From Bacteroides sp. UBA1773 (GTDB lineage Bacteria > Bacteroidota > Bacteroidia > Bacteroidales > Bacteroidaceae), in NCBI GenBank assembly GCA_002315285.1, contig DCGR01000097.1:2447-66446 (forward strand): a stretch of 64,000 nucleotides of DNA. The letters run 5' to 3'. The translations under genes were made by a program, and so were the position numbers. Shown piece after piece: positions 1,084 through 15,026 of the stretch. The number at the start of each line of letters is the position of its first letter. The stretch's first letter is position 1. The notes under the pieces are model-generated. The model had not been told where the DNA came from, did no database searches, and was given only the letters and a program-made list of their open reading frames with translations.

Positions 1084-2235
1084 TTAGCACTTGTAGTATC
1101 TCTTGTACCACTCAGCAAATGATCTAAGTCCATCTCTGAGCGAAGTACTCGGGCGGAATCCGAAATCACGCTCAAGGGCAGTAGTATCTGCATAAGTGGT
1201 GGGAACGTCACCAGCTTGCATAGGGACCAGTTCCTTATGACTCTCAAAGTCATAGTCATCGGGCAAAACTCCAGCACGAATAAGTTCCTCTTGAAGAATC
1301 TGCACGAAGTCTAGCAAGTTCATGGGCTTGGAGTTTCCTATATTATATATTTTATAAGGAGACAATGGCAGTCCATCTTCGCCAATCTTCCGTTCGGGTG
1401 CTTTATGTATCACCCTTTGAATACCCTCCACGATGTCGTCAATGTAGGTGAAGTCGCGCTGACAGTTGCCGTAGTTGAATATCTTGATGGGCTCACCTTT
1501 TATGAGTTTGTTAGTGAAGCCGAAGTAGGCCATATCGGGACGGCCGGCAGGACCATAGACGGTGAAGAAGCGCAGGCCTGTGGAAGGGATGCTGTAGAGT
1601 TTGCTATACGCATACGCCAAAAGTTCGTTCGACTTCTTGGTAGCAGCATACAGGCTGACAGGATTATCGACTTGATCGGACTCTGCAAACGGCACCTTCT
1701 TGTTGCCGCCATAGACGCTGGAGGAACTAGCGTAAACCAGATGCTGAACGCCAAGATAGGAAGCCCCTCCTAAATCCTCCCTTGTAGGGAGGACTTTATT
1801 TTCCCCTCTACGGGAGAGGGATAGGGGAAGGCTTCTTCGGCAGGCTTCGAGTATGTTGTAGAAACCGACCAGATTGCTCTCGACATAGACCTCTGGATTC
1901 TCGACGGAATACCGCACTCCATCCTGAGCCGCCAAGTTGACGACGATGTCGAAGTGATACTGTTCGAACAACTTATAGATTAGCTCCTTGTCCGCCAGAT
2001 TTCCCTTCACGAAGGTGTATTTGCTCTCTGGATGCCCGACCGCACATTTTTCGATTTGCTGCAAGCGCCATTCCTTCAACGACACATCGTAATAGCCATT
2101 GACGGAGTCGAAACCGACTATCTTAACTGGAGATTCGCTATTGAGCAGACTCAGCACGAGGTTGCTGCCGATGAATCCCGCAGAACCAGTAACAAGGATG
2201 GTCTTACCTGTAATATTCACATTATTTTGAAACAT
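1084..2235 (-). CDS. NAD-dependent NDP-sugar epimerase (UDP-glucuronate 4-epimerase-like), carrying a ~29-aa in-frame insertion
   Basis: KTILVTGSAGFIGSNLV Rossmann motif, HLVYASSSSVYG and YAATK catalytic motif. The track start at 2274 is TTG. The ATG at 2233-2235 (MFQNNVNITGKT) places the GxxGxxG at the usual distance from the N-terminus. Confidence 0.8.
   Translation of the reverse strand: MFQNNVNITGKTILVTGSAGFIGSNLVLSLLNSESPVKIVGFDSVNGYYDVSLKEWRLQQIEKCAVGHPESKYTFVKGNLADKELIYKLFEQYHFDIVVNLAAQDGVRYSVENPEVYVESNLVGFYNILEACRRSLPLSLSRRGENKVLPTREDLGGASYLGVQHLVYASSSSVYGGNKKVPFAESDQVDNPVSLYAATKKSNELLAYAYSKLYSIPSTGLRFFTVYGPAGRPDMAYFGFTNKLIKGEPIKIFNYGNCQRDFTYIDDIVEGIQRVIHKAPERKIGEDGLPLSPYKIYNIGNSKPMNLLDFVQILQEELIRAGVLPDDYDFESHKELVPMQAGDVPTTYADTTALERDFGFRPSTSLRDGLRSFAEWYKRYYKC
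1750..1836. repeat. GC-rich palindromic mini-element inserted in frame in the epimerase gene
   Basis: Two perfect hairpins: CCTCCCT-tgt-AGGGAGG (1776-1792) and CCCTCT-acggg-AGAGGG (1804-1820). They are flanked by imperfect inverted ends GAAGCC(CCTCCTA) at 1760-1772 and (TAGGGGAA)GGCTTC at 1822-1835. The element encodes RSLPLSLSRRGENKVLPTREDLGGASYLG between the conserved ILEACR and VQHLVYASS blocks. Confidence 0.6.
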
Positions 2236-2426
2236 ACGAATTGACAATTGCCTGTAATCAGTGTCAGTAATCAATTGTCAGTTGCCAGAAGTCAGCGGTT
2301 TTAGCAAATTGCGTGCCAAATTAGCGTATTCTGAACTTGTGGAACAAGCGTAACGCTCTATGTGATGAATCGAAAATTGAAATGGGTTATGATTGGGGGC
2401 TGCTTGGGCATGAGAATCCCCCTTCT

Positions 2427-4379
2427 TTATTGTTTCATCGCGTCGTGCATGTATTGACACACCTCGCTGAGTTGTGGAATGCGGTTGCGCCTACGGTCGA
2501 GAATGATGCCGAGTTGCTGACATAAGGGTTTCAAGAGGGCTTCAGTACGTGAATCATCGGTGATAATACGCTGAGGAATACGACCGGAAGATTTCGCCTT
2601 ATTAACATACTGAAGAAGAACGTCTCGCTCATAGTCGTCAGAGATTTCGCACAAATCAGAATTGCTGGTCATCAATGTGTTTTTGTCGACCGAAAACAGG
2701 GTGAGTGCCAGAAAAGCCTTCTCAGGTTCTGCTTCGTTGCCGATATATCCAGGGAAATGTAGAAGGCGTATGAACTCTGTGCCAATTTTCTGAAGGAGAC
2801 GAAGAGGTGTGATTTCGTCTTCGGACAATGTGACTGTTGTGAAGTTGTCAGTCAGACCTGGTAGTTTGGTACGCTCTACTTTGTAGCCTTCTGCTGTCTT
2901 TACCACGAGAGGCACTTCCTTCCCACCCTTTTCTGTGGCATACACGCGAGTTGTCTTGAATCCGAATTTTGTCAAGTCATCTGTATCCATAATCTGTTGA
3001 CTGAACCATACGATAGCTTCAAGCGCCTCTTTAATACGAGCAAGTTGTGTGTCATCGCTCGGCAATCTGGTTGGAACACAATGGGGACGAAAGATTTGCG
3101 GGAAAGGATAACCATGAGAACCTTCTATCTTCTGATCATGTGCCTCCGCCCATAGCTCAATCTGACGATACCGCTCGGGACGCATCATCCCATCCTCAGG
3201 GTCATCGAATATGACAGACATGTAGTCGGCCCAATAATGTAATTCCATTAATTCGAAACTTGGACATTGGACTTGGACACTCTTCGCCATAAATATGTAG
3301 GTTTGGAAACTGTCTGCTCCATCATAGAGTTGGACATCGAAGGTCTCACCTCCGTACCCCATGGTGGCAATATAGATTTCTGAACCATCCTGCATACGAA
3401 TGGCAAAAACATCAGAGTCGTCAAGATCCTCCCATAACTCGCTTTCACGAATTTTGAAAGAGAGGGAAATGATATCGTCATAAAGGGGAGACCATTTTGC
3501 GAGCTCTTCTTTTGCCATTGAATCAAGGTCGTGGCTTATCAGACGAGCACCGTTGGATGCATCCATTATTTCCTCGGCTGATTCATCATCGGTAAAACTG
3601 TCGCAGATATCAATACATTCGTACTTGTCAAAATATTCCGGATCATAATCCTTGTTCCAACCTGCCCATTCGAGCCGTTCTTTCTCATCGGAAGTCAGAC
3701 GTTTGCGAGACCTACGTTTTTCGAGAATATCGAGAAGTGCCTGATAGCCCCACACACCACCACAGTCCTCAGGAGGACAGGCTCCCTTGCCGCTCTTGAA
3801 GATTATTTCGTGGAGTTCATCTTCTTTATATTCCTCAATAGAAGAGAGGCGGATTTCATGCTCCCATGAGTCACCGAAGTCATACTCCCACTTAATGGAC
3901 TTGCCTCTCACGTTGAGAAGATCGGAAAGTTTATATTCCTCTTGAAAGAAAGTGTTGCCCCAGCTATCGTCACGGCAATACTGATAGTAAGGTACATAGT
4001 ACGCATCATGGGTGCCTACTATCTGATTGAGATGTTCATTCCACCATCCCATCAACCGCAACACCAGTTCAGTAAGATGGCGAAGGGAGATGTTTGAGGG
4101 ACAATCGAACTTACGCCAAATGGTAGGAGTAGTGCCCTTGAGCGCAACACGTATGGTGTACTTCTTGACTTCGTCAGAAGGAAGGAAATGAGGATAGTTC
4201 ACCTCGTCGTACTCGGGTTTTGAACTTCGCTTGCTTTTCTGTTTAGGTGTTTGCTTCTTAGAGATAGGGACAGTGATTATCTCAGAAATGAATTCTGAGA
4301 GTGCCTTTTCGGTTTCTTCGCGTGACTTGCCAGTCGTCTGCATGAACCGCTGCAAGAGGTCTTCGGGTATCTGTGGCAT
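2427..4379 (-). CDS. pRiA4b ORF-3 / MM3350-like domain protein with a ~350-aa uncharacterised C-terminal extension
   Basis: 650-aa ORF with an ATG start. Residues ~70-250 (YTIRVALKGTTPTIWRKFDCPSNISLRHLTELVLRLMGWWNEHL...WEYDFGDSWEHEI...GKGACPPEDCGGVWGY) match the signature I recall for the plasmid pRiA4b ORF-3 / IS1096 TnpR-passenger family. A GGGGG/CCCCC hairpin (2395-2422) follows the stop. Confidence 0.6.
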   Translation of the reverse strand: MPQIPEDLLQRFMQTTGKSREETEKALSEFISEIITVPISKKQTPKQKSKRSSKPEYDEVNYPHFLPSDEVKKYTIRVALKGTTPTIWRKFDCPSNISLRHLTELVLRLMGWWNEHLNQIVGTHDAYYVPYYQYCRDDSWGNTFFQEEYKLSDLLNVRGKSIKWEYDFGDSWEHEIRLSSIEEYKEDELHEIIFKSGKGACPPEDCGGVWGYQALLDILEKRRSRKRLTSDEKERLEWAGWNKDYDPEYFDKYECIDICDSFTDDESAEEIMDASNGARLISHDLDSMAKEELAKWSPLYDDIISLSFKIRESELWEDLDDSDVFAIRMQDGSEIYIATMGYGGETFDVQLYDGADSFQTYIFMAKSVQVQCPSFELMELHYWADYMSVIFDDPEDGMMRPERYRQIELWAEAHDQKIEGSHGYPFPQIFRPHCVPTRLPSDDTQLARIKEALEAIVWFSQQIMDTDDLTKFGFKTTRVYATEKGGKEVPLVVKTAEGYKVERTKLPGLTDNFTTVTLSEDEITPLRLLQKIGTEFIRLLHFPGYIGNEAEPEKAFLALTLFSVDKNTLMTSNSDLCEISDDYERDVLLQYVNKAKSSGRIPQRIITDDSRTEALLKPLCQQLGIILDRRRNRIPQLSEVCQYMHDAMKQ

Positions 4380-6439: not shown

Positions 6440-7246
6440 TTACCGACTGACGCTCCGGCTTGTGCATGAGGCCTTGCAAACCTGTTTGTGCTTTCGATCG
6501 ATTCCCCAAAGATTGCCTTGTGAATCAAGGGCTATGCCTTGTCCATTAAAAGGAATGTCGATGGTGTCTGTAAGCTGGAGTCGCATTCCATAGGGTGGAA
6601 AATCCAAGACAAAGAGTTTCTGGGCATCGTGCCCCGTACAATAGAATTTGCCATCGACAAACAATCCTCCTGACAGACTATTGGGATGGAGCTCGTCCAA
6701 AAGCTCCTTTGGAAGTATCCATCCTTGAAGACGGTGCCAATCATCGTCAAACTGCACTATCTGCGTCCAAGATGCGTCCTTTAGCATCTCTCCTCCTACA
6801 TTGTATCCGCTTCTGTCATAATGTGCAAAACAGACATACCAACAACCGACACCTCGTACCACCCAAGTGCATGAACCCGCATTGATGCCAAGACTGATGG
6901 TACGGACATGCTCCAGTGTCCGAGGATTGAACACTTCGATGGAACTTGCCATGGGCACATCCGGATAATTGGAATGGGAACAGTAGAGTAAACCGTCAAC
7001 AACAATGCCTCCATCAAAATGTTTGATGAGCCGCGCGTCGGATTCACTCCATGTAGTAACCGAGTCGCCCTTGAGCGTATATTTGGAGATGCTCTGATTG
7101 CCGATGGCATAGAAGCTTTCGGAATCGACCGCCACTCCCTGAATGGCATTGGAAGATGAGAATGTCTCAACGATATGATAATTCTGCGACATGACTTCTC
7201 CAGTTACAAGAGCGAAGGTACAGAAGAGTATAAACCTGATTTTCAT
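6440..7246 (-). CDS. Secreted hypothetical protein, beta-propeller-like
   Basis: The ATG at 7244-7246 gives the signal peptide MKIRFILFCTFALVTGEVMSQ. Repeated hydrophobic-strand/Gly-Asp patterns occur (IALDSQGNLWGIDR, GGIVVDGLLYC). No catalytic motif recognised. Confidence 0.5.
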   Translation of the reverse strand: MKIRFILFCTFALVTGEVMSQNYHIVETFSSSNAIQGVAVDSESFYAIGNQSISKYTLKGDSVTTWSESDARLIKHFDGGIVVDGLLYCSHSNYPDVPMASSIEVFNPRTLEHVRTISLGINAGSCTWVVRGVGCWYVCFAHYDRSGYNVGGEMLKDASWTQIVQFDDDWHRLQGWILPKELLDELHPNSLSGGLFVDGKFYCTGHDAQKLFVLDFPPYGMRLQLTDTIDIPFNGQGIALDSQGNLWGIDRKHKQVCKASCTSRSVSR

Positions 7247-7292
7247 AAGACATGCGTTATAATAAGGGAACAGATCCATAGACAAAACTAAC

Positions 7293-8459
7293 CTATTTCC
7301 CAAACGAATCTATCCTAAAATCCACAACATAAGGACGTTTATTGGCATCCTTTCCACGCTTCAAGAATACGATGAGTTCAACAACCGAACCAACCGAAGG
7401 TACAACCTGTTTTGACTGCAACAATTGTTCAGACAAATAGCCCATGGTATATGATGGCTCTGTGGTTCCCAGCTCTACCAGAGGCAGGCCATCGGTAAGT
7501 TCCCATGCACAATATTGCGGACTTGTATTGACTCGCGTGATTCGTACCTTACGATAGCCAAATAGCTGTGCCCCTTCTTCGACCGAATACACCTTATTTA
7601 TTAAGGCACTTTTGAAACGGCCATTTTGAGGAATGATAGGGATGAAACTAACATACTGACCTACAGCAGGACGAATGTTCGACTTTACAGCCACAAAATG
7701 GCATGAAGAATTGTCGAAAATGTGCACATGATCGTGATTAAAATCGATGTGTTCGACATAGCCTATCAATAATGGAAACAATTCGGGAATAGGACGAGGT
7801 TCCAATATGGCAGCCTCTGCCCGCCAAGTCTCATCTCGCAATCCAGCCTTGACATTTCGCAAAAGCACACGAAACAAGCGGTTCGGAATGTCAGCATAGC
7901 GCAAGCGACAAAAAGCAGTAAGTGTGTGTACCTCGGTAGTAATGTCCGTTCCATCAGCTGCGACCAAACGAGCAAACGTGATGGCACGTCCGCGTACTTC
8001 GGAAGTGAATACAGAGGTGACAATCATCGGGACGAAAGGTTCCGACAAAGAAAATCCCTTTTTGCGAATGAGCGGAGCAAGAACCATTTCCAATTCCTCA
8101 TCCAGCCGTTCGTCGGGGTGAAACAGCAAGGAATAAACGTATGCTTTGGACAACCGTTCCACCAATGAAGGATACGACTTTCCCGATGCATCAATATGGA
8201 CCTCACTATCTTCTTTCCGCAAATTCTCCAACCCCCATGCCTCGAGAAAAGGCACAAAGTGAAAATCCGGATACATTGTAGCCATTCTCACCGCCACCGA
8301 CAAGATAGCAGAATGTAACCGGGAGGGCCTTGGGATGTTAGATTCCATATAAGAAGCCAAGATTCGGCGTAACTCCACCGACGGCTGTTTCCCAATGCCT
8401 TCGTTAAGCGTTCGTAACGTGTCCCACCCATGAGACTGTTGTGATGAATCCATAAGCAT
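7293..8459 (-). CDS. Hypothetical cytoplasmic protein (388 aa), family not recognised
   Basis: Long ORF with an ATG start, lying 8 nt downstream of the preceding gene. No signal peptide or TM segment. A helical N-terminal third is followed by three strand-rich segments that look like small beta-barrels. Confidence 0.6.
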   Translation of the reverse strand: MLMDSSQQSHGWDTLRTLNEGIGKQPSVELRRILASYMESNIPRPSRLHSAILSVAVRMATMYPDFHFVPFLEAWGLENLRKEDSEVHIDASGKSYPSLVERLSKAYVYSLLFHPDERLDEELEMVLAPLIRKKGFSLSEPFVPMIVTSVFTSEVRGRAITFARLVAADGTDITTEVHTLTAFCRLRYADIPNRLFRVLLRNVKAGLRDETWRAEAAILEPRPIPELFPLLIGYVEHIDFNHDHVHIFDNSSCHFVAVKSNIRPAVGQYVSFIPIIPQNGRFKSALINKVYSVEEGAQLFGYRKVRITRVNTSPQYCAWELTDGLPLVELGTTEPSYTMGYLSEQLLQSKQVVPSVGSVVELIVFLKRGKDANKRPYVVDFRIDSFGK

Positions 8460-8467
8460 TAACGAAA

Positions 8468-9649
8468 TTACATGCCACTACGTCGGATACGCAGTTCTAT
8501 CGCCTCGGAATGGTTGTCACTAAATACTGTAGCATCATTCACCACACAAGCCAAATATCCACCAGCACCGGCACCCGACAATTTCCATGCCAACACATCG
8601 GGATCAACTGCCCAACGGTCGATATGGCTCTGAACCGTACCTTGTATCATAGCTGGAAACATTGCCACCTGAGCCTCGAACGAAGCTTGGAGATATTTGG
8701 CAAATCCATCGAGGCAAAGGCTCATGATGGATTGCCAACACTTGTCTGCCGCAACAGCAAGGGCTTGTACCTTGGCACGGGTAATGTCCTTCCCTTCCAC
8801 AATACTACAACCAATCGGACGGGCATCAATAGGAATAAGTGCCAGATGACTTTCGAGCCACCGAAGAACGGACTCGTCCTCACTACTCTCTATACGTTCG
8901 GGCCAGAAGTGATTGTCGTAATAATGGCGACAAAGACCTGGCACACAGATGCCGATGGCATCCTGCGCACCACTGATAATGCCATCCTCACGCTCAGGAT
9001 TATTCTCGAAACAGAACACCAAGCGGGCGAGAGTCTCGGGATTCATATTGGGAAGCTGATAAGGCCAAATACGTTTGATGTGGTTGCGTGTGGAAGTCGA
9101 TAATCCACAACGCTCGCGTATCTCGAACGATGGCTCAAGGGAAATGGTAATGGCCCAGCCAGGAGCATGACAGCTTACGTAAGGCTGGTCAATCCACGTG
9201 CCGGCAAGGTCGAGACGCGTAGGTATCTGGCAAGGGCTCTTCTTCAGGTCGGTAGAAGAACGAGCCTCCAATCCTTGCTGCGGGACACGCTCAAGGACAA
9301 CATACTCCATGCCACGCTCCTCACAAACCTTGCGTTTGGCATCACTTCCTCCATCGGAATTGACCACCAGAATGTCCGGACGGACAATGTCGAGTGTCGG
9401 CAAGAAATCAAGAATACCATCGCCTTGATTGATAAACGCCTCCTTGACATAACGAATGCTGCGTACCATGAACAGACGTTCCTGCTCGGAATATACGGTC
9501 TTATGATTCTTATAATGAAGAATGGTGCAATCGGAACCTATGCCTACATACAAATCGCCATACTGTGCAGCCTGACGGAAAAACTCCACATGACCAGAAT
9601 GAAGCAAGTCGTAACAACCCGACACAAATACTTTCTTTCGCTTTTCCAT
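8468..9649 (-). CDS. Fusion protein: cytidylyltransferase-fold nucleotidyltransferase (N-terminal) + fucokinase/HddA-like GHMP kinase (C-terminal)
   Basis: N-terminal motifs: VFVSGCYDLLHSGHVEFF (HxGH), SIRYVKEA, ERVPQQGLEARSSTD (RTxGISTT-like). C-terminal motifs: PTRLDLAGTWIDQP, SGAQDAIG, KLSGAGAGGYL. GHMP motif II is degenerate (ERCGLSTSTR). Confidence 0.7.
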   Translation of the reverse strand: MEKRKKVFVSGCYDLLHSGHVEFFRQAAQYGDLYVGIGSDCTILHYKNHKTVYSEQERLFMVRSIRYVKEAFINQGDGILDFLPTLDIVRPDILVVNSDGGSDAKRKVCEERGMEYVVLERVPQQGLEARSSTDLKKSPCQIPTRLDLAGTWIDQPYVSCHAPGWAITISLEPSFEIRERCGLSTSTRNHIKRIWPYQLPNMNPETLARLVFCFENNPEREDGIISGAQDAIGICVPGLCRHYYDNHFWPERIESSEDESVLRWLESHLALIPIDARPIGCSIVEGKDITRAKVQALAVAADKCWQSIMSLCLDGFAKYLQASFEAQVAMFPAMIQGTVQSHIDRWAVDPDVLAWKLSGAGAGGYLACVVNDATVFSDNHSEAIELRIRRSGM

Positions 9650-9666: not shown

Positions 9667-11745
9667 TTATCGCCACTCCAGACGCAGGTTGTGAAGTTCG
9701 CTGTCGGCATGACGTGAACTACAATCAGTACGAGTCAGACTTATCCGATGCGATTTGCCTGCATGAAAGTCATCCTTGCCGAGAGTGAGCCTATATACGG
9801 TTTGGTCAGCAGCAACCCGAATCATCGATTCAAGCACGCGCTCGTTGCGGTTGTAGGAGCGCAATACGATTTGGTTCTCACCTTTCTTCAGAGTCACCAA
9901 TACCTTTTCTTCGCGATAAGAGCAACGGAAAGGATTGAGGTGTTTCATGACAGAAAGCCCATTCACAAACAAATCGACACCGTTTCCGGCTCCCACCTCC
10001 AACACGATGTCTTGCGTGCATGGTGAAGTGATGGTCTCCATCATGTACATGGTATCGAAAGGACGTCCCTCGATAGTGACACGCGACTGTGATGTCTCTG
10101 TCCACGGAATGACAACCTGTCCGTCTGGCATCTTCCCGGAAGAAAATGCTACTTCCTTCTCCATGGCGAAACCATGCCGAACCACACGACACCAACGACG
10201 TGCCGACTCCACGACGGGTGTGTAGCGTAGTTGCTGCGCATTGGTTTGTCCCAAGGTGCAACACCGTTCGTTGCCATCGACTACCACCGAAACAGCCTTT
10301 CCGGCATCACTGGCCGTAAACACAAAACCTGCCTGCTTGCCTTTGTGCTTGGTATCAATATTCCAACAATAACCCACTTCGCTACGTTCGTTGGAATAGT
10401 AGTCCTGACAATTATAACTGCTGACGGCTATACGGGTATTCATCAGCGTAGCATCTTCCGGCTGGATTGCACTGCCAAATTCAAGCCGCACGACTTGGAT
10501 ATCCCCCTCATACGCTTCAGGCAATAGTCTCACCACCAACTTGCCCCTCTGCTGCACTACTGTGGCTGGTCCAGACACTCCGACAAGCCTATCGGCCACC
10601 GAAGGTAAAGTAATCTCACCGGATTCAGGACGTACACCCGAGAGGATGAGATTCATCTTGTTGTCGTTGCGAGTAATTCCTCCCCAACTGAAGGGTTGCT
10701 GATAAGGACTCCCTTCGCAAGCGTATATCACATCGCCATTCAACCGAAGCCACGCACCTATCTCCTTGAGCACCTCTGCCTCCCAAGGAACCACCTCGCC
10801 CAAACCCGTAGGACCGATGTTGAGCAGATAATTGCCACCACCAGCCACTACACGTATCAGGCAGCAAAGCTTTTCGTGTGCTTTCGCATGTGCATCGCCA
10901 CGTTCCTGCCAACTGCGATACCCCCATGTGGCATCGAACATGGAAGCAGGACACTGCCAGGCCGTTTGAAGAGATGCCTCAGGATAAAAGTTATCGCCCA
11001 TGACAGCAAAGTCGTACTGCCCGTTGCCCAAGCGACCACTTACCATACACTCGGGTTGATGCTGATGTACCAGATCGTAAAGTTGCTTGCTTTGCTGTGG
11101 CGTCAGACTTCCCATGTCGAACCACAGTTCACTGATGTTCCCATAGTTGGTGACCAATTCACGAACCTGATTCAGATTCAACTGATGATGCACATCCGGA
11201 ATGACATTGGCATTATGACTGGTAATGCTTGACGCTCCAGGATGATGCCAGTCGATAAGAGAATAATACAAGCCAAAACTGATACCTCCACGATGGCACG
11301 CATCGGAGAGTTCGGCAATGAAATCACGGTGGCATCCCGCACTGTCGTAAGAGTTGAAAGTGGTAGTGGCTGTACGGAAAAGACAGAACCCATCGTGATG
11401 TTTTGAAGTGATCACAATGGAACGCATCCCCGCCTGCTTGGCCAATGCCACAATGGCATCGGCATCAAACCGTTCAGGATTGAACTGGTCGGCAAGTCGT
11501 TCATACACATCACCATAAATGCCAGCATGTGCCTGAATCTGTTCGCTATACCCCCGACTGATCTGCCGTCCATCCCATACTCCACCAAGCATGGAATACA
11601 AGCCGAAATGAATGAACATGGAATACTTGTTGTCATGCCAACTTTGGGCAGTGACCTGTTCAGACCGTACACCTGCCAACAAAACAGGACAACAAACCTG
11701 CGACACGCAAAGCAGGACAAACAATCTGATTATGGCTTTCTTCAT
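9667..11745 (-). CDS. Secreted alpha-L-fucosidase (GH29) with C-terminal beta-sandwich domains
   Basis: Signal peptide MKKAIIRLFVLLCVSQVCC. GH29 core: YSMFIHFGLYS...AKQAGMRSIVITSKHHDGFCLF...GLYYSLIDWHHP. The track start at 11748 is GTG; the ATG is at 11743-11745. Confidence 0.85.
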   Translation of the reverse strand: MKKAIIRLFVLLCVSQVCCPVLLAGVRSEQVTAQSWHDNKYSMFIHFGLYSMLGGVWDGRQISRGYSEQIQAHAGIYGDVYERLADQFNPERFDADAIVALAKQAGMRSIVITSKHHDGFCLFRTATTTFNSYDSAGCHRDFIAELSDACHRGGISFGLYYSLIDWHHPGASSITSHNANVIPDVHHQLNLNQVRELVTNYGNISELWFDMGSLTPQQSKQLYDLVHQHQPECMVSGRLGNGQYDFAVMGDNFYPEASLQTAWQCPASMFDATWGYRSWQERGDAHAKAHEKLCCLIRVVAGGGNYLLNIGPTGLGEVVPWEAEVLKEIGAWLRLNGDVIYACEGSPYQQPFSWGGITRNDNKMNLILSGVRPESGEITLPSVADRLVGVSGPATVVQQRGKLVVRLLPEAYEGDIQVVRLEFGSAIQPEDATLMNTRIAVSSYNCQDYYSNERSEVGYCWNIDTKHKGKQAGFVFTASDAGKAVSVVVDGNERCCTLGQTNAQQLRYTPVVESARRWCRVVRHGFAMEKEVAFSSGKMPDGQVVIPWTETSQSRVTIEGRPFDTMYMMETITSPCTQDIVLEVGAGNGVDLFVNGLSVMKHLNPFRCSYREEKVLVTLKKGENQIVLRSYNRNERVLESMIRVAADQTVYRLTLGKDDFHAGKSHRISLTRTDCSSRHADSELHNLRLEWR

Positions 11746-11775
11746 CACACTCGATTTTAAGCATTACTAAAGTTA

Positions 11776-13847: not shown

Positions 13848-15026
13848 TTACAAACGAAACTGTACGCCATCGGCACTGTGACAGATTATTGTCTGGTACT
13901 TATCAGACAAAGCAGGAAACTCCTTGAGATATGCTTCCGCAACCTTGGCAACAATCTCCTCACGATAATCAGGATTGATAAGTGAAACACAACAACCTTT
14001 GAAACCAGCACCGGAAAACCTGCCTCCATAAATTCCTTTTGTGCGTGTCAGAATGTCGTAGAGAGCCTTCAGTTCCGGACATCCGGTCTCCCAGTTGACA
14101 ATAGACGATTCACCGCTCAAGAACGAAAGTTGCCCATAGGTCTCGATGTCGCCTTGACGCCATGCTTCTGCAGCACGCTCAACCCGCTCTTGTTCAGTGT
14201 ACCAATGTTCCGCCCGCTTACGCCACGGTTCGGGCAATCGCGATTTATACGCCTCGAAGACATCGCGTGGCACATCGCGCAGATTCGTTTCATTGTACTT
14301 CCCATATTCAATACCCGCATAAGCCTTGAGGGCATAGGCAGCGCTACGGGCCTCATCGACACGCATATTGAGTTTAGAACCAGTAAGATTACGTTCCATA
14401 CCACTGAAAAAGATAACGATTTCGTAGGGTTTCATGTGATTACCTGTAGGAATCAACTCATAAGCATCATTCTGGGTATCTACAAAAAGCAAGTGATCTT
14501 TCTTCGCGAAAACTTCGCACGACTGATCGGAAACACCCACATTGACGCCTACATAACAACGCTCGGCAAACAATGCCATATGGATGAGTTCGGTAGATGA
14601 CAATTGTACATCGTTGACCTGAGCAAGCGCCTGCAAAAAGGAAATGGTCACCGCTGCCGATGAAGAAAGTCCGCCGATGGGCAGACTACCCTCAATCACC
14701 CCACAAAGTCCCATGTGCAACACATAGCGTTGACTCAAGGCTAATGTCGCTCCGCGCAAATAATCGGCCCAATCATCGACCTTACTCTCAGGGGTTTCCC
14801 TGATGTGCCACTGAGCTCGTTTTCCAAACTGTAGAGAGGTCAACTCAACAACACCATTCCGTTTAGGACTGTAGGCCAAATGGATGCCACGATCAAGTGC
14901 CAGACCTGTAGTCTTGCCCAATCCGTAGTCCGAATGTGCCCCTACAGGCATCACCCGTTGCGGACAAAAAGCCAACGAACCGGCCTCACGCCCATATATT
15001 TCGAGAAAGCGTTGCTGACAAAGCAT
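13848..15026 (-). CDS. Galactokinase-family GHMP sugar-1-kinase, specificity unknown
   Basis: PVGAHSDYG (GEHxDY-like), LPIGGLSSSAAV (motif II), GGRFSGAGFKGCC (motif III). Confidence 0.75.
   Translation of the reverse strand: MLCQQRFLEIYGREAGSLAFCPQRVMPVGAHSDYGLGKTTGLALDRGIHLAYSPKRNGVVELTSLQFGKRAQWHIRETPESKVDDWADYLRGATLALSQRYVLHMGLCGVIEGSLPIGGLSSSAAVTISFLQALAQVNDVQLSSTELIHMALFAERCYVGVNVGVSDQSCEVFAKKDHLLFVDTQNDAYELIPTGNHMKPYEIVIFFSGMERNLTGSKLNMRVDEARSAAYALKAYAGIEYGKYNETNLRDVPRDVFEAYKSRLPEPWRKRAEHWYTEQERVERAAEAWRQGDIETYGQLSFLSGESSIVNWETGCPELKALYDILTRTKGIYGGRFSGAGFKGCCVSLINPDYREEIVAKVAEAYLKEFPALSDKYQTIICHSADGVQFRL

Follow-up and report, generated by a model that had tools for sequence, protein, structure and literature searches.

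A widespread fusion of a cytidylyltransferase-like domain and a mini-GHMP kinase domain as a probable L-fucose salvage enzyme of Bacteroidales

How could a protein of 393 residues, in which a cytidylyltransferase-like domain precedes a shortened sugar kinase domain, activate a sugar, and which sugar would it be? The question is raised by a locus of Bacteroides sp. UBA1773 (assembly GCA_002315285.1, contig DCGR01000097.1, positions 2,447–66,446), a stretch of 64,000 nucleotides (nt) referred to here as the window, which encodes this protein at 8468..9649 on the minus strand in an open reading frame (ORF) that runs from an ATG start codon to a TAA stop codon. We propose that the ORF probably specifies a compact bifunctional L-fucose salvage enzyme, an L-fucokinase/fucose-1-phosphate nucleotidylyltransferase, whose product would most probably be GDP-L-fucose. 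An original prediction, made from the DNA letters alone, had described a fusion of a cytidylyltransferase and a GHMP kinase at exactly this position, to which we add the strand that it left unstated. All seven motifs that it quoted are present in the translation, with coordinates re-derived, namely LLHSGHVEFF (residues 15–24), SIRYVKEA (64–71), EARSSTD (128–134), PTRLDLAGTWIDQP (143–156), ERCGLSTSTR (179–188), GAQDAIG (227–233) and SGAGAGGYL (358–366). The parts of the protein are as follows, where conservation counts, here and below, refer to an alignment of 141 relatives (A3) and pLDDT is the predicted local distance difference test score.

8468..9649, minus strand: whole ORF, putative bifunctional L-fucokinase/fucose-1-phosphate nucleotidylyltransferase, 393 residues plus stop
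9242..9649, minus strand: cytidylyltransferase-like (HIGH-motif) nucleotidyltransferase domain, residues 1–136, from PF01467, TIGR00125, PDB and Foldseek matches
9590..9601, minus strand: HxGH motif (H17-S-G-H20), the nucleotide α-phosphate/transition-state site of the fold, with H17 and H20 in 141/141 relatives
9248..9289, minus strand: RVPQQGLEARSSTD, expanded RTEGISTT motif (R121...R130-S131-x-T133), from the alignment of 141 relatives
9227..9241, minus strand: linker KSPCQ between the domains (pLDDT of 56 for the block of residues 131–140)
8471..9226, minus strand: predicted mini-GHMP sugar-1-kinase domain, residues 142–393, from profile A1 against the PDB and from Foldseek
9182..9223, minus strand: GHMP motif I and sugar pocket, PTRLDLAGTWIDQP, with R145, W152, D154 and Q155, from alignment to Fkp 590–621, invariant in the 141
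9086..9115, minus strand: variant GHMP motif II (phosphate-binding loop), ERCGLSTSTR, aligning to SGLGTSS of HddA
8951..8974, minus strand: SGAQDAIG with G227, Q229 and D230 (proposed general base), from the Fkp alignment, invariant
8552..8584, minus strand: GHMP motif III, KLSGAGAGGYL, with A360 equivalent to Fkp A900, from the Fkp alignment and conservation in the 141

The ORF is a genuine gene and not a chance reading frame, because public sequence data include a protein identical to its 393-residue product, its homologues form at least 8000 clusters at 90% identity (the best 120 being 80–100% identical) and relatives are found in at least 576 species-level genomes when each GTDB species is represented by a single genome. 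The best 80 of these species-level relatives are 69–81% identical to the window protein and come nearly all from uncultured metagenome-assembled genomes of Bacteroidales, Prevotellaceae or Rikenellaceae type, with sources in the rumen, the horse and the human gut. With such numbers, the architecture is common, and the view that it is unusual is not borne out. Identity across families amounts to 70–80%, and the family is annotated only as 'adenylyltransferase/cytidyltransferase family protein'.

The N-terminal domain has the fold of TagD, CCT and HldE domain II, as had been predicted for the first ~130 residues, and on this the Pfam, NCBIfam, PDB and Foldseek matches agree. PF01467 (CTP_transf_like) matches residues 9–136 with an E value of 1.6e-14 (54.7 bits against a cut-off of 21), and TIGR00125 of NCBIfam is likewise above threshold (52.8 versus 27.7 bits). 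Similarities below the NCBIfam thresholds are to HldE domain II, archaeal PPAT and TagD, the rfaE_dom_II model reaching 50.6 bits against an equivalog cut-off of 181.5. Sequence matches in the PDB comprise human ECT (60 bits), TagD (40 bits), the cytidylyltransferase domain of Fom1, Thermoplasma 3glv, CCT and HldC. The AlphaFold (AF2) model of the domain shows the Rossmann-like α/β fold of TagD and HldC, with Foldseek matches to 5x3d, 3glv, 5xf2, 2b7l and 1coz (TMt 0.67–0.85), and the closest folds to the modelled domain are those of Fom1-CyTase, HldC and TagD. In addition to the two histidines of the HxGH motif, R58 is invariant and K47 nearly so, and R121, R130 and S131 are kept in 141/141 relatives and T133 in 138/141. 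The counterpart of the RTEGISTT motif is expanded across the relatives to RxPxxGLxxRS(S/T)T.

The C-terminal domain lies within the fucokinase/HddA branch of the GHMP kinases, again in line with the original prediction. A profile (A1) of 23 standalone relatives of this domain together with that of the window protein, searched against the PDB, matches the fucokinase domain of Fkp (9iip, E 3.3e-15), the HddA-type kinase 3k85 of B. thetaiotaomicron (E 7.9e-12), WcbL (E 1.8e-8) and mevalonate kinases (E 1e-7). The AlphaFold model of the protein, built from a multiple sequence alignment, has a pLDDT of 88.3 and a predicted template modelling score of 0.70; a single-sequence model (pLDDT 33) was discarded as unusable. 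Foldseek returns 4usk (WcbL), 9iip (Fkp), 4n3o, 3k85, 1vis and 1s4e for the C-terminal domain, each with a probability of 1.00, and the two-lobe GHMP fold is evident. The model thus finds both of the relatives that had been suggested for superposition with the C-terminal half, Fkp and HddA, as well as TagD and HldC for the N-terminal half. Profile and structure both give GHMP, so that the possibility that the C-terminal half is not a GHMP kinase is not what was found. Two relatives (P0147 and P0173) reach the PF08544 threshold with 29–31 bits, and many others carry precomputed PF08544 matches. The domain is predicted to be a 'mini' GHMP kinase with a shortened N-lobe. A phmmer search with residues 135–393 against 1.84 billion representatives yields 555 clusters at E<=1e-3, and among 72 full-length representatives of the C-terminal domain 41 carry the N-terminal domain, 25 are standalone proteins of ~240 residues and 6 belong to other fusions.

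An indication of the substrate comes from the residues that line the sugar pocket of Fkp. In Fkp, R592 and D762 touch O1, D762 acts as the general base and its exchange in D762A abolishes activity, W599 stacks upon C4–C6 of fucose, D601 and T602 touch O3 and O4, and G759 and Q761 also touch the sugar, while S719 and S720 bind Mg2+ and G717 and A900 touch the phosphate (2025 structure paper, PMC11982464). A hidden Markov model alignment equates R592, W599, D601, T602, G759, Q761, D762 and A900 with R145, W152, D154, Q155, G227, Q229, D230 and A360 of the window protein, respectively, all of which are found in 141/141 relatives. Hence the equivalents of the fucose-binding residues R592, W599, D601, Q761 and D762 are kept without exception.

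The phosphate-binding elements are conserved in a form of their own. By motif analogy with HddA, S186 and T187 would correspond to S719 and S720 of Fkp; G182, S186 and R188 are present in 141/141 relatives and T187 in 138/141, being otherwise Ser, and the equivalent of G717 is Ala or Ser family-wide. Motif II takes the family form R-(S/C)-G-(L/M)-(A/S)-T-S-T-R in place of PxGSGLGSS, where the Gly and the Ser/Thr pair are kept and Ala or Ser stands in place of the second Gly. The original prediction had described this motif as degenerate, and it is indeed non-canonical; since its residues are conserved across the 141 relatives, it appears to be a fixed variant and not a product of decay. Motif III, K356-x-S-G-A-G-(G/A)-G-G-Y, is invariant together with D230 and R145, as in a GHMP kinase. 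The original prediction had added that the kinase half may be diverged or repurposed; its unusual trait is a deletion of ~60–85 residues between motifs I and II relative to HddA and Fkp. The catalytic positions are kept, and the kinase machinery looks intact. Identity among close relatives is 89% for the N-terminal and 77% for the C-terminal domain, and both domains are under purifying selection.

The architecture sets the window protein apart from the enzyme that it most resembles. Fkp of B. fragilis (PDB 5yys, 9iip, 9iit) carries the same two proposed reactions on one polypeptide, and its fucokinase domain is the best PDB match, with the residues described above kept. However, Fkp has 949 residues, with an N-terminal NTP_transferase pyrophosphorylase (Rossmann-like, GT-A-type), a β-helix and a full-size kinase, whereas the window protein has 393 residues, an unrelated HxGH fold and a kinase that lacks ~85 residues between motifs I and II. 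NCBIfam gives nothing significant on the C-terminal domain, where the Fkp family model NF009948 reaches 16.7 bits against 721, on residues 323–373 only, and a PF00483-type domain is not found in the window protein. The HldE model NF008454 similarly reaches 30 bits, where the cut-off is 521, and covers only the transferase part; HldE has a PfkB kinase and the order kinase-then-transferase, and a PfkB domain is not found in the window protein. With the defining models and domains of both families missing, the window protein is not a member of either, which agrees with the earlier statement that it is built differently from both and is less than half the size of Fkp. Plausibly, the window protein works like Fkp even though it is not built like it.

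Precedents for each of the two halves come from other sugar and alcohol activation pathways. HldC and HldE domain II set the precedent of a cytidylyltransferase-like fold that acts as a nucleotidyltransferase on a sugar-1-phosphate, and HldC (5xf2) is among the Foldseek matches. Among the GHMP kinases, the anomeric or heptose kinases HddA and WcbL are close relatives of the C-terminal domain, but the partner of HddA is HddC, which has the NTP_transferase fold, and the sugar pocket of the window protein contains the Fkp-type Trp where the heptokinases have GGGTD. TagD, CCT, ECT and Fom1 provide the best sequence and fold matches to residues 1–136 and share the HxGH, RYV-type and (R)STT-type motifs. 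They differ in that they use CTP with phospho-alcohols or phosphonates, have no GHMP fusion and lack the expansion of RTEGISTT seen in the window protein.

A full-text literature search found one paper on a fusion of a CTP_transf-like and a mini-GHMP domain, that of Lakey et al. (Gut Microbes, June 2026; PMC13313206), in which all D-arabinose-resistant Akkermansia mutants carry mutations in Amuc_1591. D-arabinose is an analogue of fucose, loss of Amuc_1591 confers resistance and L-fucose rescues growth; from genetics and modelling only, the protein was described as a cytidylyltransferase-like N-terminal domain with a fucokinase-like C-terminal domain and named a 'putative fucose-nucleotidyltransferase' (PMC13313206). 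The concern that the architecture might prove to be an already characterised family is therefore approached by this work, but the paper offers genetics and no enzymology. A text search of a 2025 phylogenetic survey of FKP proteins found no mention of a cytidyl- or adenylyltransferase.

In Amuc_1591, as in the window protein, a PF01467 domain precedes a short GHMP-like one, and the same functional hypothesis has been put forward for it. BLASTP aligns the two with 36% identity over residues 5–156, through the junction and into GHMP motif I (E 2e-29), and the profile of the 141 relatives matches Amuc_1591 over residues 2–192 with 126.8 bits. A comparison of the C-terminal domains by hhalign gives a weak match (93.4% probability, E 2.4e-7, 190 columns), and in BLASTP and HMMER the C-terminal domain of Amuc_1591 is not alignable contiguously past motif II, HMMER covering motifs I–II and III only. 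Amuc_1591 also differs in its length of 363 residues, in the Fkp-like GWQD and GGGYGGY where the window family has SGxQD and GAGGGGY, and in its setting in a murJ operon of the Verrucomicrobiota. By these alignments the two fusions are homologous but distant.

The genes around the relatives point to fucose. The ORFs of 80 species-level loci, each reaching ~10 kb to either side of the gene, were clustered, and 64 of the 80 have at least one of gmd, fcl, fucP, rhaM or manC no more than 3 kb away from the target gene. The recurrent neighbours are listed below.

31 loci of 80: Gmd (TIGR01472, 566 bits)
31 loci of 80: Fcl-type GDP-fucose synthase (epimerase family), ending a median of 2 nt before the target
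36 loci of 80: FucP (TIGR00885, 589 bits)
40 loci of 80: RhaM-family mutarotase of 107 residues (PF05336, 96 bits)
14 loci of 80: ManC-type guanylyltransferase

The commonest orders are target-fucP-rhaM, gmd-fcl-target-fucP-rhaM and target-rhaM-manC, and rarer neighbours include glycosyltransferases, Wzy-like proteins, WbpM, a LegC-like aminotransferase and PMI. The catabolic set FucI, FucK and FucA does not recur among the 80 loci, for which reason we regard the context as anabolic, and a separate fucokinase is likewise not recurrent in these neighbourhoods. Gene fusions of the Rosetta-stone type reinforce the association: rhaM is joined to the CTP_transf and C-terminal domains in four proteins (P0137, P0334, P0352 and P0373), and Gmd is joined to the C-terminal domain, without the cytidylyltransferase domain, in a protein of 601 residues (P0123, L087:6001-7806) that represents a 43-member cluster found on many contigs. 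The gene for this Gmd fusion is next to an fcl-like gene, and the polysaccharide locus in which both lie further encodes a GHMP_N+NTP_transferase fusion. Together, the fucose/GDP-fucose neighbourhoods and these fusions strongly back the two-step sugar activation that had been postulated for the ORF, and the recommended survey of neighbours points to fucose as the sugar.

The fucose signal becomes thinner among more distant members of the family, which are 44–52% identical to the window protein and whose source names include Anaerolineae, Dysgonomonas and Prevotellaceae. RhaM is adjacent once among them, and an Fe-ADH of the FucO family adjoins the target homologue in two phylogenetically distant contigs, of Anaerolineae type (L083:9817-10986) and from Dysgonomonas (L117:4817-5974), which may represent a link to fucose/lactaldehyde metabolism. 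We also observe the mini-GHMP domain fused to GT2, to TcdA/TcdB-like glycosyltransferases or to a GT1-like domain, or within a PNP_UDP_1 + CTP_transf + GHMP protein (P0142, P0161, P0183, P0147). Such fusions suggest a wider modular family, possibly with other substrates.

Within the window, the nearest genes on either side of the ORF are the following.

9667..11748, minus strand: GH29 α-L-fucosidase (PF01120, E 1.9e-67), upstream of the target on the same strand with a 17-nt gap
7293..8459, minus strand: ORF of 388 residues, 8 nt after the target, with no Pfam or NCBIfam match
6440..7303, minus strand: ORF of 287 residues overlapping the 388-residue ORF, with no Pfam match

The fucosidase is a likely source of free L-fucose. 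None of the 80 related loci has a counterpart of either downstream ORF next to the target, and the two ORFs, not being conserved neighbours, are not counted as parts of the system. Promoter and terminator scans around the target remained at background level, the promoter models of the scan not covering Bacteroidota. No Fkp or fucose catabolic genes were found in the rest of the 64-kb window, where the large ORFs encode a helicase, a Wzz-type tyrosine kinase, TamB, Omp85, a topoisomerase and similar proteins.

From the domains, residues and gene associations observed here we infer two consecutive reactions. Fucose would be released by the adjacent GH29 enzyme in this genome, and in most relatives would be imported by the adjacent FucP and handled by the RhaM-type mutarotase. 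GH29 is a retaining family and so releases α-L-fucose, which the mutarotase would equilibrate to the β anomer. In the first step, the mini-GHMP domain would bind β-L-fucose in an Fkp-like pocket and transfer the γ-phosphate of ATP to O1, with D230 as the general base and with R145, the variant P-loop (residues 180–188) and motif III (residues 358–365) holding the phosphates and Mg2+, as the conserved residues suggest. In the second step, the HxGH domain would join the resulting β-L-fucose-1-phosphate to a nucleoside triphosphate and free pyrophosphate, in keeping with its fold and motifs, to give NDP-β-L-fucose. The activated fucose could then feed fucosyltransferases that build surface glycans.

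Several points weigh against this proposal. Neither PF00288 nor PF08544 matches the window protein at E<=0.01; because these Pfam models miss it, the GHMP assignment needed the evidence of the family profile and the structure, so that the Pfam check proposed with the original prediction was negative for the protein itself while its GHMP identity was recovered by other means. Profile alignments reveal that between motifs I and II the C-terminal domain is missing ~60 residues relative to HddA (39–100) and ~85 relative to Fkp. The fourth position of motif III (SGAGAGGY) is A362 in the window protein (8564..8566, minus strand) and Gly in 140/141 relatives. Fucose-related neighbours are absent from 16 of the 80 loci, and none is seen in the Anaerolineae-type contexts L081 and L082 or in L118. 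The evidence base for the family, Amuc_1591 included, consists of sequence, models and genetics. Finally, characterised PF01467 enzymes to our knowledge use CTP or ATP and not GTP, and a GDP-fucose product would call for a specificity as yet undocumented in this fold.

This last point leads to the most serious alternative, which we consider doubtful but worth weighing, namely that the protein performs the same two steps with an N-terminal domain that uses CTP or ATP, yielding CDP- or ADP-L-fucose, a donor that has not yet been described. Indeed, the highest scores of the N-terminal domain are with enzymes that depend on CTP or ATP (ECT 60, TagD 40 and rfaE domain II 50.6 bits), Fom1-CyTase, HldC and TagD head the Foldseek matches, and we know of no PF01467 enzyme that uses GTP. 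Set against this, the target is embedded among gmd, fcl and manC in many species, the kinase domain also occurs fused to Gmd and the fucosyltransferases known to us use GDP-fucose. A CDP- or ADP-L-fucose product, if true, would imply fucosyltransferases using such a donor. We favour GTP, and with it GDP-L-fucose as the most probable product, because of the gmd-fcl-manC context. The N-terminal domain could then be the first GTP-dependent sugar-1-phosphate guanylyltransferase of the cytidylyltransferase-like superfamily, and the protein an independently evolved 393-residue route to GDP-L-fucose.

It is very unlikely that the fucose context is incidental and that the true substrate is another sugar or phospho-alcohol, such as L-galactose, D-arabinose, another 6-deoxyhexose, a heptose or a head group of the glycerol or ethanolamine type. 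The GHMP relatives do include the heptose kinases HddA and WcbL, the relatives of the N-terminal domain act on glycerol-3-phosphate, phosphoethanolamine and heptose-1-phosphate, some members are fused to GT2, TcdA/B-like or PNP_UDP domains and some loci are free of fucose genes. Nevertheless, the Fkp-specific Trp that stacks upon C4–C6 of fucose (W599, here W152) is retained along with the equivalents of D601 and Q761, the neighbours FucP (589 bits) and Gmd (566 bits) are identified at equivalog level, a GH29 fucosidase lies upstream of the target and L-fucose rescues the growth of Akkermansia (PMC13313206).

We consider it very unlikely that the C-terminal domain is a non-catalytic module binding a sugar or sugar-phosphate, with the protein acting only as a fucose-1-phosphate nucleotidyltransferase and the kinase step residing elsewhere: the truncated N-lobe, the non-canonical motif II and the usage of the Akkermansia authors, who call the domain substrate-binding and whose 'fucose-nucleotidyltransferase' has this literal sense (PMC13313206), would fit, but D230, R145, the P-loop Ser/Thr pair and motif III are invariant in the 141 sequences (T187 in 138/141), standalone C-terminal domains are common (25/72 full-length representatives) and the neighbourhoods show no recurrent separate fucokinase. 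A phospholipid head-group or phosphonate role for the N-terminal domain, of the ECT or Fom1-like kind, was rejected as the principal interpretation in view of the gene neighbourhoods and of a kinase pocket of the fucose type.

Elsewhere in the window, ~3.4 kb upstream of the fucosidase, a galactokinase-like GHMP kinase (13848..15026, minus strand) is directly followed by an NTP_transferase (PF00483; 13072..13812, minus strand). The kinase matches PF00288, PF10509 and PF08544, with NCBIfam galactokinase models at 196–204 bits, all below their cut-offs, and the two genes form a second, separate putative sugar-salvage pair. A protein of 650 residues (2427..4379, minus strand) with PRiA4_ORF3, DUF7309 and DUF6930 domains is encoded between WbpM-like and epimerase genes. 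A UDP-GlcA-4-epimerase-like ORF (1084..2274) contains an in-frame insert of ~26–31 residues (RSLPLSLSRRGENKVLPTREDLGGASYLGVQ, ~1745..1835, minus strand) that is absent in the homologue L049:6877-7947. The DNA of the insert folds into nested hairpins (-43 kcal/mol, z -1.9), and a degenerate pattern retrieves 27 similar G/C-hairpin repeats from metagenome contigs, with several in the single genome Ga0208244; their flanks appear mostly non-coding by inspection without ORF calling. The insert resembles a small palindromic mobile repeat that has entered a coding gene in frame.

To return to the putative fucose salvage enzyme, the kind of protein has just been described with Amuc_1591, of which the window protein is, by its sequence, a diverged and very widespread member. 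What is new here is the fucose/GDP-fucose context, the retention of the Fkp contacts, the truncated GHMP core and the size of the family. If the proposal is true, the protein would be an example of non-homologous replacement of a nucleotidyltransferase module, would delimit the smallest core of a GHMP kinase and might widen the choice of nucleotides known for the HxGH fold. Fkp is the present workhorse of chemoenzymatic GDP-fucose synthesis, and an enzyme of 393 residues that performs both steps would be attractive for the production of GDP-fucose and its analogues. The Akkermansia gene linked to D-arabinose toxicity gains a large, testable family context.

In Bacteroidota, the supply of GDP-fucose underlies the capsule, lipopolysaccharide and general O-glycosylation and affects gut colonisation, and the salvage of fucose has so far been attributed to the 949-residue Fkp. 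Because the family carries a generic annotation, metabolic reconstructions of Bacteroidales from the rumen and gut probably overlook a capacity for fucose salvage. If the GTP-dependent reading is true, the family would provide a route to GDP-L-fucose in thousands of gut and rumen Bacteroidales.

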